The notes beneath the pieces were generated by a model. That model did not search any database and had not been told where the DNA came from. It saw nothing but the letters and a program-made list of their open reading frames with translations. Positions 28,514 through 31,405 of a DNA stretch of 64,000 nt are shown in pieces. The number at the start of each line of letters is the position of its first letter. The stretch's first letter is position 1. The stretch comes from Nitrospirales bacterium (lineage in GTDB: Bacteria > Nitrospirota > Nitrospiria > Nitrospirales > UBA8639), in the NCBI GenBank assembly GCA_965213715.1, contig OZ243914.1, forward strand, positions 322,964 through 386,963, given 5' to 3'. Both the position numbers and the translations under genes were made by a program.

Positions 28514-30157
28514 ATGGCAAAGCAGCTACTGTATAGTGATCAAGCCAGGAGCGCGATTCTCCAGGGCGTGAACCAATTGGCCAATGCCGTCAAGGCCACG
28601 TTGGGCCCGAAAGGCCGGAACGCCATTCTGGACAAGAAATTCGGCGCGCCCACGATTACCAAAGACGGCGTGACCGTCGCCAAGGAAATCGATCTCAAGG
28701 ACCCCTACCAGAATATGGGCGCCCAACTGGTCAAGGAAGTCGCCAGCAAAACCAGCGACGTGGCCGGTGACGGCACCACAACCGCCACAGTGCTGGCCCA
28801 GGCCATTTTCCGCGAAGGCGTGAAGCACCTGAGCGCCGGGGCGAACCCGATGGAATTGAAGCGCGGGATCGATAAGGCCGTTGAAGCGGCGACGACGGAA
28901 CTGAAGAAACTCAGCAAGCCCTGTCAGGACAAGAAAGAGATCGGGCAAATCGGCGCCATTTCCGCAAACAACGACTCCACCATCGGCGACTTGATTGCCG
29001 AAGCCATGGACAAAGTCGGCAAAGACGGCGTCATTACCGTGGAAGAAGCCAAATCCATGAGCACCTCGCTGGACGTGGTCGAAGGCATGCAATTCGACCG
29101 CGGGTACATTTCCCCCTACTTCGTGACCAATGCCGAACGCATGGAATCTTCCCTCGAAGATGCGTTCCTGCTCATCCACGAAAAGAAAATCAGCGCCATG
29201 AAGGATCTGCTCCCCATCCTGGAGCAAGTGGCCAAAATGGGGAAACCGCTCGTCATCGTGGCCGAGGACGTCGAAGGTGAAGCCTTGGCGACACTAGTGG
29301 TGAATAAGCTGCGCGGCACCTTGAACATTGCGGCAGTCAAAGCCCCGGGCTTCGGTGATCGCCGGAAAGCCATGCTGGAAGATATCGCCATCCTGACCGG
29401 CGGCCAGGTGATTTCCGAAGAAGTGGGCGTCAAACTGGAGAACGTGAAACTCACGGACCTCGGTCGCGCCAAGCGGGTGACCATCGACAAAGACAATACG
29501 ACGATCGTTGAAGGCGCCGGAGACCCCAAGAAGATCGAAGCCCGGGTCAAACAAATCAAGGCGCAAATCTCGGAAACCACGTCGGAATACGACGGCGAAA
29601 AACTGCAAGAGCGGTTGGCGAAGATCGTGGGCGGTGTGGCGGTTATCAACGTCGGAGCCGCGACCGAAACCGAAATGAAAGAGAAGAAAGCCCGCGTGGA
29701 AGACGCGTTGCACGCGACAAAAGCGGCCGTGGAAGAAGGGATTGTCCCCGGCGGCGGCGTGGCGCTGCTCCGGGCCGTGCCCGCCCTGGAAAAAATGACG
29801 TTGGAAGGCGACCAACAATTCGGCGTCAACATCGTGCGGCGGGCATGCGAAGAGCCGATCCGGCTGATCGCAGAGAACGCCGGCGTCGAAGGCTCGATCG
29901 TGGTCGACAAAGTCCGCAACTCCAAGGCTGCGCATGGGTACAACGCGGCATCGGACGAATACGTGGACTTGGTTCAGGCCGGCGTGATCGACCCGACCAA
30001 AGTGACGCGGTGTGCCTTACAGAATGCCTCGAGTGTCGCCGGGTTGATGCTGACCACCGAGGTCACCGTGACGGACCTGCCGGAAGAAAAGAAAGAAGCA
30101 GCCGGCGGCATGGGCGGCCATGACCACGGCATGGGCGGAATGGGCGGCATGATGTAA
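28514..30157 (+). CDS. groEL: chaperonin GroEL
   Basis: The segments [45 protein letters not shown] and [12 protein letters not shown] are present, with the GGM-type tail [17 protein letters not shown]. Confidence 0.97.
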
Positions 30158-30184
30158 GCAAGCTGAAGCACTGCCGCTTCTTAA

Positions 30185-30224
30185 CGAAGGCCCGAGGGAA
30201 TGTTCCCTCGGGCCTTCGTTTTTT
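30185..30224 (+). terminator. groEL intrinsic terminator
   Basis: CGAAGGCCCGAGGGA-ATGT-TCCCTCGGGCCTTCG forms a perfect 15-bp stem, followed by T6. Confidence 0.85.
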
Positions 30225-30257
30225 GAGTCGTTGTGCAGGACGCGAAACCTCTCCTCC

Positions 30258-30289
30258 TGTCATCCCCGACCTGATCGGGGATCCAGCGT
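30258..30289 (-). repeat. hairpin repeat P1 (inverted orientation)
   Basis: The reverse complement ACGCTGGATCCCCGA-TCAGG-TCGGGGATGACA has the same flanks as P2 and P3, but the stem is CCCCGA/TCGGGG instead of CCTCGA/TCGAGG. Confidence 0.65.
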
Positions 30290-30425
30290 ATTTCTCTTTT
30301 GCAATTGTAGCGGCACGATCTCATGGCGCCTTCTTCTAAGAAGTTGTTATTTCCATTCCGAGCGAGACGAGGAATCTCGTTGCAATCGTAAGGCTAAAAA
30401 TGGCTATGTCCCCAGTGACATAAAG

Positions 30426-30845
30426 TCACCGCGTCTCCCACGGATTGACCACAGCCACGTTCAGGCCGTCAAAGTCCCTGACGTTGCGGGTCGCTATGGC
30501 GAGGCCATAGGTTTTCGCCGTTCCCGCGATTAGTGCATCACCTAAATCCAGCGTACGTCCGAAACGGTGCGCTTGTGCCCGAAACCGGGCTGCCCACTCT
30601 GCCCCTACCCTCTCCAAAGGCAGGATGCGGTCTTCGTATTCAGCGATGATCCCCAGTAGGTTATCCTGTAGATTGGATCGCCGTTGTCCTTGCGCCAAGC
30701 GCTGCAACCCATATTCCAACTCGTGCATCACAATCGACGACAGCCAGAGGTCGTCGTGTTCGGTGAGGAACGTAACGACCCGGGTGTGCGGAGTGCTTCG
30801 TATGACCTCGGAGACCACGTTCGTATCCAGGAGAAAGCCGTTCAT
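30426..30845 (-). CDS. vapC: PIN-domain toxin VapC
   Basis: The segments MNGFLLDTNVVSEVIR, HELEYG, GDALIAGTA and IATRNVRDF carry the PIN acidic residues. Confidence 0.9.
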   Translation of the reverse strand: MNGFLLDTNVVSEVIRSTPHTRVVTFLTEHDDLWLSSIVMHELEYGLQRLAQGQRRSNLQDNLLGIIAEYEDRILPLERVGAEWAARFRAQAHRFGRTLDLGDALIAGTAKTYGLAIATRNVRDFDGLNVAVVNPWETR

Positions 30846-31123
30846 GCGTCTTCGTCATCAATGAACGGGATCTTCCGATTGGAATGGCGGTCCGGCATTT
30901 CAAGTTCTATCCCGCGCGGCATGTTCTCGACAAGCCACTGCCCCAACGGCTTGCGCGTCGGCGTTTTCGCATCCCATGTGGCGGCGGGTACCACAACGAA
31001 CGACCGACGGGTGCCGATACGTTGCGGTCCTTCCTCTTCGGCGAGACGCAGGATTTCGGACAGTCGCGCCTTGGCCTCGGCCACGGTCCATGTCCGGTCG
31101 GATTTGGCATGTTTGGTAGTCAT
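30842..31123 (-). CDS. vapB: Phd/YefM-type antitoxin (VapB partner)
   Basis: RTWTVAEAKARLSEILRLAEEEGPQRIGTRRSFVVVPAATWD fits the Phd/YefM pattern. The stop overlaps the vapC start (ATGA-type 4-nt overlap). Confidence 0.85.
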   Translation of the reverse strand: MTTKHAKSDRTWTVAEAKARLSEILRLAEEEGPQRIGTRRSFVVVPAATWDAKTPTRKPLGQWLVENMPRGIELEMPDRHSNRKIPFIDDEDA

Positions 31124-31170
31124 ATGACCCCCAATTGATTGCTAATAGTCCAATATAGACCATATTTGAA

Positions 31171-31336
31171 GCTGAATCAAGTCACGCGCTGCGCATTACA
31201 AAACGCCGCGAGCATCACGGAGCTGATGCTGACCACCGAGGTGACCGTGACGGACCTGCCGGAAGAAAAGAAAGAAGCAGCCGGCGGCATGGGCGGCCAT
31301 GACCACGGCATGGGCGGAATGGGCGGCATGATGTAA
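31171..31336 (+). pseudogene. duplicated groEL 3' fragment (last ~52 codons)
   Basis: [52 protein letters not shown] compares with [22 protein letters not shown]... in groEL. Positions 31225-31360 are identical to 30045-30180 except for one base. The track ORF 31139-31336 is an artefactual start fused to this fragment. Confidence 0.9.
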
Positions 31337-31365
31337 GCAAGCTGAAGCACTGCCGCTTCGCATTG

Positions 31366-31405
31366 AAGGCCCGAGGGAGTATTCCCCCGGGCCTTCGTTT
31401 ATTTC
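31366..31405 (+). terminator. degenerate second copy of the groEL terminator
   Basis: GAAGGCCCGAGGGA-GTAT-TCCCCCGGGCCTTC has one stem mismatch and is followed by the interrupted T tract GTTTATTT. Confidence 0.6.

Follow-up and report, generated by a model that had tools for sequence, protein, structure and literature searches.

A second groEL tail beyond a vapBC module in a Nitrospirales bacterium: a probable relic within a strain-variable hotspot

Why does the 3′ end of the chaperonin gene groEL, together with its terminator, occur a second time downstream of the intact gene, on the far side of a toxin-antitoxin module of the vapBC type? The question is raised by 64,000 nucleotides (nt) of a Nitrospirales bacterium (assembly GCA_965213715.1, contig OZ243914.1, positions 322,964 to 386,963 of the forward strand), hereafter called the window, in which a sequence-only reading had taken the two copies for the footprint of a mobile vapBC element targeting groEL. 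We consider it probable that the second copy descends from a displaced groEL end, now a relic, and lies in a hotspot of defence and toxin-antitoxin genes that varies among strains and extends from groEL to the genes p129 and queG, and that the centre of the relic has been refreshed by gene conversion. In terms of the earlier interpretation, therefore, the inserted DNA and the second tail as a recombination scar are retained, but vapBC as an element targeting groEL is not, nor is the near-identical core as an attachment (att) site.

The resident groEL (28514–30157, forward strand) is intact and full-length with 547 codons, and a protein identical to its product (P0001) is annotated with PF00118. 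At a fixed offset of 1179, positions 30000–30224 match 31179–31403 over 225 nt with 90% identity; a repeat of the groEL 3′ end and terminator is thus present beyond chance, as had been noticed from the letters alone, while the offset of 1180 given then was wrong and the coordinates of the second copy were one base too high. Copy 1 (30000–30224, forward strand) is composed of the last 158 nt of the resident gene including the stop codon, a 23-nt spacer, and the terminator. Copy 2 (31182–31403, forward strand) is a relic (pseudogene) in which the groEL tail, the spacer, and the terminator are all represented, and its homology runs over 31179–31403 when the AAG triplet at 31179–31181 is counted. 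Indeed, the homology starts at this AAG (30000–30002 in copy 1); the nine bases in front of it (29991–29999 versus 31170–31178), which had been counted as repeat, are not homologous and are part of the promoter flank of vapBC.

Similarity is not uniform along the repeat. A core of 136 base pairs (bp) at 30045–30180 and 31224–31359, both on the forward strand, contains a single mismatch (30064 C versus 31243 G) and an exact run of 116 nt; its size and the mismatch at 30064 had been described correctly, but the partner base is at 31243 and not at 31244. In front of the core only 37 of 55 positions are identical (67%), which agrees with the two-thirds identity and with the two homologous but different peptides of the earlier description, and in the terminator segment the identities are 36 of 43. 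Given 27 differences in 234 aligned bases in total, a clean run of 116 nt has a chance of approximately 8e-5, and the mosaic pattern with its sharp identity boundary is therefore real. The terminators also differ as had been claimed, except that the stem in copy 1 has 17 bp instead of 15: the intrinsic terminator of groEL (30183–30224, forward strand) has a perfect stem followed by T6 (−37 kcal/mol, z = −8.3), whereas that of the relic (31365–31406, forward strand) is degenerate, with a mismatched stem followed by a broken TTTATTT (−26.2 kcal/mol). Between the copies there are, again as described, a hairpin repeat and a vapBC module with both genes intact, and Pfam detects no recombinase anywhere in the 2.2-kb island of the window.

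To place the window among its relatives, groEL loci were collected and numbered (L002 etc.): one genome per species was scanned with the groEL tail peptide, followed by tblastn and blastn, and six close GroEL proteins were looked up in a large protein collection, in which several dozen genomes of the clade are represented at 95–98% GroEL identity. The look-up yielded L244–L256, with 11 further islands running past groEL (near-duplicate assemblies of one island included); the contigs of L246 and L251 end with groEL or shortly after it. L162 is an extension of L001, and L172 and L176 are from the JGI metagenome scan, which added just one locus of the island group, L163. The island-bearing loci thus number 17, namely the window and 16 others. 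Open reading frames (ORFs) of the islands were scanned with Pfam in the window, L002, L003, L005, L007, and L162, precomputed Pfam annotations of called genes were used for L162 and L244–L256, and PADLOC was also used.

Eight Nitrospirales loci (L006, L008, L009, L010, L024, L027, L172, and L176) have an empty site, in which groEL is directly followed by p129-queG(-mutS2) within 0.2–0.4 kb. These loci provide the empty site that the sequence-only reading had proposed to look for and support its insertion of DNA at the 3′ flank of groEL; positions 30228–32405 of the window (2.2 kb) are therefore inserted DNA, and in blastn against the empty-site locus L008 the homology resumes at 32406. The conserved right flank of the hotspot, namely p129 (a conserved protein of 129 residues) and queG (PF08331), lies at 32487–33927 on the forward strand of the window and is followed by mutS2.

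The closer relatives all carry islands between groEL and p129, and the content differs. In L162, a sister strain whose GroEL protein is identical to that of the window, the order is groEL, hairpin repeat, a 1354-residue helix-turn-helix (HTH) protein, MmeI, vapC, vapB, a second PIN toxin (with a small upstream ORF as its presumed antitoxin), and higA; in L002 it is PDC-M50A, two ThsB-like genes, MmeI, vapC, vapB, the groEL fragment, an MmeI remnant, an MBL-fold gene, and p129. In both L002 and L162, 6–8 kb of defence genes thus separate groEL from vapC, and the islands of L003, L005, L007, and L163 each differ again. Across the 17 islands the cargo includes toxin-antitoxin modules, type IIG restriction enzymes, ThsB-like / PDC-M50 and PDC-S01 genes, and also HEPN, GmrSD, GCS2, and MBL genes, AbiE-adjacent genes, and DDE transposases; type IIG MmeI, ThsB-like / PDC-M50, and PDC-S01 are PADLOC calls, and HEPN, GmrSD, the AbiE-adjacent genes, PIN/Phd, and HigBA are identified by Pfam. 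Judged by gene content, the cargo appears rich in defence genes. With the same two flanks and a differing order of cargo in the 17 loci, the site is a variable hotspot; it belongs to a clade of small-genome Nitrospirales, and its cargo differs in nearly every strain examined.

Furthermore, identical GroEL proteins adjoin different islands in L244/L245/L246 (one sample), in L252/L253 (one sample), and in L254/L255/L256, which indicates co-existing strains that differ mainly at the hotspot. Sequence exchange is also visible within groEL. Between the window and L162 (3744–5460), nt 1–1037 of groEL show no difference and 28 differences follow up to the terminator; between L005 and L002, the identity is 96–99% over the first 1200 nt and 88–92% beyond, with the break near nt 1150–1200. 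Two strain pairs thus have recombination breakpoints that fall in the 3′ third of the gene. Crossovers there therefore accompany the exchange of islands, i.e., the 3′ third of groEL is a recombination boundary and is exchanged together with the downstream island.

The groEL relic itself is not confined to the window (225 bp). It is found in L002 (17001–17219, 219 bp, with a +1 frameshift), in L005 (OZ242346.1, 18745–19008, 264 bp, with its left edge further upstream in groEL), in L162 (14206–14245, 40 bp), and in L245 (approximately 14 bp), and no relic was found in the remaining loci compared. The relic is accordingly common to at least three species-level lineages and has been eroded to different lengths. 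A search for second tails in the 161 loci collected first detected only L002, L005, and three Planctomycetota loci with full tandem paralogues.

How can an old relic keep a core that is nearly identical to the resident gene? The core is 99% identical between gene and relic within the window and also within L002, whereas relic versus relic of these two genomes gives 95%, which is the same as gene versus gene, and the range between genomes is 94–96%. Each pair of gene and relic within a genome has a private allele that is absent from the other nine sequences, namely G at 30073 in the window and, in the gene and relic of L002, C at the column aligned with 30052 of the window. The window and L162 differ at six sites of the core, and the relic has the window allele at all of them. 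The cores thus cluster by genome and not by copy type, which argues for gene conversion rather than an att core, and the near-identity indicates concerted evolution. The relics themselves are old, as seen from the vapBC DNA beside them, in which the window and L002 are 85% identical, and the cores have hence been re-copied within each genome. The putative conversion tract of the window is approximately 136 bp and extends 23 bp beyond the stop codon, while that of L002 starts approximately 24 bp further upstream and stops at the stop codon (approximately 134–160 bp). In L005 the relic is only 89% identical to its own resident tail, and conversion has therefore not taken place there recently.

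Outside the converted tract, the 5′ part of both relics (window and L002) is 65–81% identical to every groEL compared. This divergence and the frameshift in L002 point to a decaying, non-coding pseudogene. The 5′ part is about equally distant from all alleles and the L002 relic is frameshifted, so a foreign functional groEL was rejected as its source. A simple local tandem duplication was rejected as well, because it would also duplicate vapBC and because the unconverted part is only 65–81% identical to any groEL.

Three side observations concern the relics in other loci. The 40-bp stub of L162 (14206–14245) is 100% identical to groEL of another species, L003, and differs from its own groEL at 4 of 39 positions; a variant of the hairpin repeat directly follows it. 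Just past the relic terminator of L002, at 17301–17546, there is a convergent, decayed 3′ end of MmeI (an 81-residue ORF, MmeI_C, E = 4e-16), and an intact MmeI is found upstream in the same island; the remnant suggests an older layer in which MmeI directly followed groEL. Also, a PIN-like ORF and, downstream of it, a second, small ORF, both identified by eye, lie immediately left of the L005 relic (18016–18690, forward strand), i.e., a different toxin-antitoxin-like pair at the position held by vapBC in the window.

The left junction of the relic bears on the role of vapBC. The module is on the reverse strand, with vapC (30426–30845) encoding an intact PIN-domain toxin of 139 residues (PF01850, E = 3e-16) and vapB (30842–31123) encoding a Phd/YefM-like antitoxin of 93 residues (PF02604, E = 4e-5; 23.7 bits, which is below the cut-off of 29.8 bits); the two genes overlap by 4 nt. 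A promoter-like site from a promoter scan lies upstream of the operon at 31152–31181 on the reverse strand (−10 TATATT at 31157–31152 and −35 TTGATT at 31180–31175) and includes a palindrome. Judging from the gene order, with a PIN toxin and a preceding small antitoxin in one operon and both genes intact, vapBC would fit a type II toxin-antitoxin module. The vapC protein shows 100% identity to that of L162 and 85% to that of L002, and orthologues of vapB adjoin vapC in L002, L003, L162, L245, and L247.

The flank on the vapB side (..CTGAATCAAG) is kept beside vapB in L003, L247, and L162, where it runs into unrelated sequence, while it is continued by groEL sequence (TCACGCG..) in the window, L002, and L245. 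The vapBC module with its promoter flank occurs without any groEL piece in L003 and L247, and vapBC is hence not a cassette bearing its own groEL end as had been supposed. In L162 a groEL piece is found approximately 110 bp past the flank and begins approximately 23 nt further upstream in the gene. These flanks indicate that vapBC arrived without a groEL end and was fused to a pre-existing, longer relic. At the left edge of the relic in the window there is a 3-base microhomology, AAG (31179–31181), which overlaps the −35 element of the vapBC promoter, and deleting approximately 130 bp between two AAG triplets of L162 reproduces the junction of the window exactly. L162 may thus represent an intermediate state, from which the junction of the window would follow by a deletion of approximately 130 bp.

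The probable history of the displaced groEL end can be outlined in three steps. First, a single early event at the 3′ end of groEL would have moved at least 264 bp of the tail out of place. Then, cassettes would have been gained, lost, and shuffled around the relic by homologous recombination on groEL and on shared modules, and short-homology deletions would have shaped the relic edges. Finally, gene conversion of the RecA type would refresh the middle part of the repeat (136 bp in the window), while the edges may decay because they are too near the end of the homology. The founding event itself could have been insertion by an integrase since lost, a Campbell-type crossover or homology-facilitated illegitimate recombination, or the decay of a tandem groEL copy. 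Also, the 136-bp direct repeats could in principle delete vapBC by recombination, and a toxin-antitoxin pair would select against such a loss.

Several points weigh against this history. Concerted evolution is read from few sites, namely one private allele per genome pair and the six sites that differ from L162, and conversion may have run in either direction between gene and relic. The junction shared by the window, L002, and L245 is absent from the close sister L162, which has the presumed ancestral form; for the history to hold, lineages must therefore have exchanged DNA, which is plausible but makes the reconstruction less certain. Some of the indels may be consensus errors of long reads, as ligA is split in the window. 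Moreover, a displaced 3′ fragment is the classic signature of integrase islands, and the founding event may thus have been what the sequence-only reading proposed, with the integrase lost thereafter; ORFs below approximately 90 residues and decayed integrase remnants were not exhaustively searched. Finally, the island of L163 was assessed from ORF sizes and similarity to L162 genes without Pfam, and the comparison covers approximately 10 kb 3′ of groEL in each relative and the 64-kb window in the source genome.

As to the founding event, recombination without any recombinase is a serious candidate, though short of an even chance; it concerns only the origin and is compatible with the relic in a hotspot: either a circle would have crossed over with groEL in the Campbell manner, or a linear fragment would have been joined by homology on one side and microhomology on the other. 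The homologous breakpoints inside groEL in two strain pairs are in line with it, and so are the sole readable junction, which is the 3-nt microhomology, and the islands, in none of which a recombinase was found. Also, the L005 relic is 93% identical to groEL of L002, the locus nearest L005 in the 5′ part of that gene, but only 89% to its own tail, as would be expected of a displaced native tail. On the other hand, the readable junction is probably secondary and due to a later deletion, no circular intermediate or donor configuration was observed, and such events are much rarer in the literature than integrase-mediated insertion.

It is unlikely that the relic is what remains of a tandem full-length copy of groEL or groESL, which lost its 5′ part to deletions and insertions and kept its core by conversion. 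The three Planctomycetota loci (L070, L075, and L076) do have two tails approximately 2 kb apart, the left edges of the relics differ among lineages as progressive erosion would give, and gene conversion, on which this account also depends, is demonstrated. No second full-length or half-length groEL was found, nonetheless, in approximately 25 Nitrospirales loci, and the full-length paralogue in relatives that the sequence-only reading had named as an objection to itself is accordingly missing from the Nitrospirales loci examined. Furthermore, three independent left edges fall within approximately 40 bp (groEL nt ~1447–1490 of 1644), which suggests a short ancestor, and the convergent 3′ end of MmeI beyond the terminator in L002 is easier to reconcile with a displaced gene end than with the duplication of an operon.

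We give little credence to a more far-reaching idea, in which the groEL tail is a portable homology arm or "landing pad", and defence and toxin-antitoxin cargo with a copy of that tail inserts beside groEL of any related host by a RecA-dependent single crossover with no integrase. If this were true, the pad would be kept recombination-proficient by conversion and guarded against loss by the toxin-antitoxin pair, i.e., the locus would be an integrase-free system of cassette capture anchored on an essential gene.

The reading with which the locus was first described, namely that 30000–31403 are the attL/attR footprint of a vapBC element that targets the 3′ end of groEL, brings its own tail, and has lost its recombinase or uses one in trans, appears very unlikely. 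Displaced ends of target genes are most commonly caused by integrase-borne islands (PMC4383910), of which a regenerated target plus a displaced fragment is a hallmark, and the relatives have empty sites. In L002, furthermore, the spacer and terminator on the full-length groEL are atypical and those on the relic look native. A chaperonin gene can also serve as attB, since mycobacteriophage Bxb1 reportedly integrates into groEL1 of Mycobacterium smegmatis. Nonetheless, the cores cluster by genome and not by element, and vapBC with the same promoter flank exists without the groEL segment. The junction is a 3-nt microhomology derivable from the L162 state by deletion. The copies do not delimit the island: 6–8 kb lie between groEL and vapC in L002 and L162, and the relic is not at the end of the island, given that the insertion continues distally through higBA in the window and through the MmeI remnant and the MBL-fold gene in L002. 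No tyrosine or serine recombinase is found in the 17 islands (by Pfam, or by ORF sizes in L163; remnants of <90 residues are not excluded), and the transposases of the islands are DDE only (IS1595, IS3, and IS481). In the flanks of the island in the window, the genes checked within approximately 10 kb either side, with ten flanking ORFs scanned by Pfam, are likewise housekeeping genes with no recombinase. In viral contigs, a scan with the groEL tail peptide found only distant GroEL genes (the two best matches ≤69% identical to the query, and any match ≤71%) and no attP-like fragment.

That the repeat is an assembly artefact, i.e., a mis-join or a duplicated consensus in a metagenome-assembled genome, is hardly credible even with frameshifts in ligA and higB that show an imperfect consensus, because the order of vapC, vapB, and the groEL fragment and the same junction recur in L002 (OZ241988.1), whose genome is that of another species, and also, though truncated, in L245 and partly in L162, all independent assemblies from other samples and species, and because the two copies differ at 27 of 234 aligned positions; the misassembly raised earlier as a possible refutation is thus not borne out. 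As a separate observation, ligA, the gene for the NAD-dependent DNA ligase (reverse strand, 40350–42630), is split into overlapping ORFs at 41515–42630 and 40350–41642, which cuts the adenylation domain in two. Because ligA is essential, its frameshift suggests that the assembly has a consensus indel there, and the frameshift of higB and the +1 base of the L002 relic are therefore to be read with caution.

How does a displaced groEL end in a hotspot compare with known systems? The locus superficially resembles integrase islands of the Islander/TIGER type (PMC4383910) in having an insert beside an intact target, a displaced 3′ copy downstream, and empty sites, but it lacks three of their defining features: no integrase was found in the 17 islands, the displaced fragment ends at 31403 while the insertion ends at 32405 and is thus not the island end, and the identical core tracks the host genome and not the element.

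As for Bxb1, it is said to use a serine integrase and a short attB and to disrupt a non-essential paralogue. The Nitrospirales locus is alike in having a chaperonin gene as the insertion site for foreign DNA, but the sole groEL seen, in the window and in the relatives' flanks, is intact, and there is no phage or integrase. Besides Bxb1 in groEL1, the literature searched did not describe islands that occupy the 3′ end of groEL, and the groEL/p129-queG hotspot is a previously unreported locus in Nitrospirales. Defence hotspots flanked by core genes and without their own integrase occur in the pangenomes of E. coli and Pseudomonas. Similarly, groEL and p129-queG flank strain-variable cargo of restriction-modification, TIR/ThsB-like, PDC, and toxin-antitoxin genes; unlike in those hotspots, the end of one flanking gene is additionally present here as a pseudogene.

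Concerted evolution by RecA-dependent gene conversion is exemplified by tufA and tufB of Salmonella. Copies within a genome are near-identical while orthologues diverge, and the identity tract has sharp ends, in both cases, but one partner here is a non-coding relic of 225 bp and the tract is short (~136 bp in the window and ~134–160 bp in L002). Also, type II toxin-antitoxin modules such as VapBC and HigBA stabilise chromosomal islands and integron arrays. The window would be comparable in that a predicted intact PIN toxin and a Phd-like antitoxin lie between recombinable direct repeats, while it differs in that the higB toxin is frameshifted.

The locus thus reveals no new class of mobile element. 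Its significance would instead be that defence and toxin-antitoxin cargo turns over rapidly with a highly conserved essential gene as its homology anchor, and that a gene and its own pseudogene fragment provide a clean, small case of concerted evolution. A near-perfect repeat with sharp edges can come from gene conversion and not from an att site, which calls for caution in island-finding methods that rely on displaced fragments of target genes.

The remainder of the island in the window consists of a second toxin-antitoxin pair and hairpin repeats. On the reverse strand, a higA-like antitoxin gene (HTH_37; 31523–31879; PF13744, E = 8e-26) is intact, with orthologues in L003, L007, L163, and L247, and a higB-like toxin gene of the Gp49 family (31854–32229; PF05973, E = 5e-15 on the C-terminal ORF) is frameshifted near 32112 into ORFs at 32059–32229 and 31854–32129. 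HigBA is hence not an intact module, with the antitoxin whole and the toxin frame broken, although a consensus error is possible.

The hairpin pattern CTGGATCNNCGA..TCGNNGATGACAG has three exact matches in 64 kb, all in the 2.2-kb island, where none would be expected. The element is approximately 95–100 nt with two hairpins, and its three copies sit at module boundaries of the island: copy 1 at 30250–30345 (core 30257–30286, reverse strand), copy 2 at 31452–31499 (forward strand), and copy 3 at 32300–32396 (forward strand), at the right edge of the insertion. All were identified by pattern match and folding. The stem bases vary among the copies with pairing kept (fold z-scores −2.2 to −4.4); the element follows groEL in L162 too, and other copies occur at unrelated sites in relatives. 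As repeated imperfect palindromes with paired stem changes, the hairpins are extragenic elements resembling repetitive extragenic palindromes (REP) or miniature inverted-repeat transposable elements (MITE). Integron attC sites were considered and rejected, given that there is no R″/R′ core (GTTRRRY) and that copies occur at unrelated loci, and Rfam gave no match at E ≤ 1 in 26000–34000. A weak fourth copy is present at 20535–20582 in the window.

Upstream of groEL, groES (28122–28436, forward strand, 104 residues) is an ORF for which identical or near-identical products of relatives are annotated with PF00166 (Cpn10).

A second patch of small genes was noticed at approximately 14700–20600 of the window, between genes read as proA and purQ. 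It has a GC content of 51.7% as compared with 55.2% for the window, it showed no second copy of the end of either flanking gene, and three of its ORFs have no Pfam match; judged from translations, it contains RelE/ParE-like and Phd-like ORFs and a fragment of IS3 OrfA. This patch is probably another toxin-antitoxin islet.

Among the cargo of the relatives, finally, L162 (5704–13116) and L163 (6801–14227) share a protein of approximately 1354–1359 residues, in which an N-terminal HTH_3 is the only domain and for which PADLOC gives no match. In both loci its gene adjoins that of an MmeI-type restriction enzyme directly after groEL, and the protein is a candidate for an uncharacterised defence gene product.

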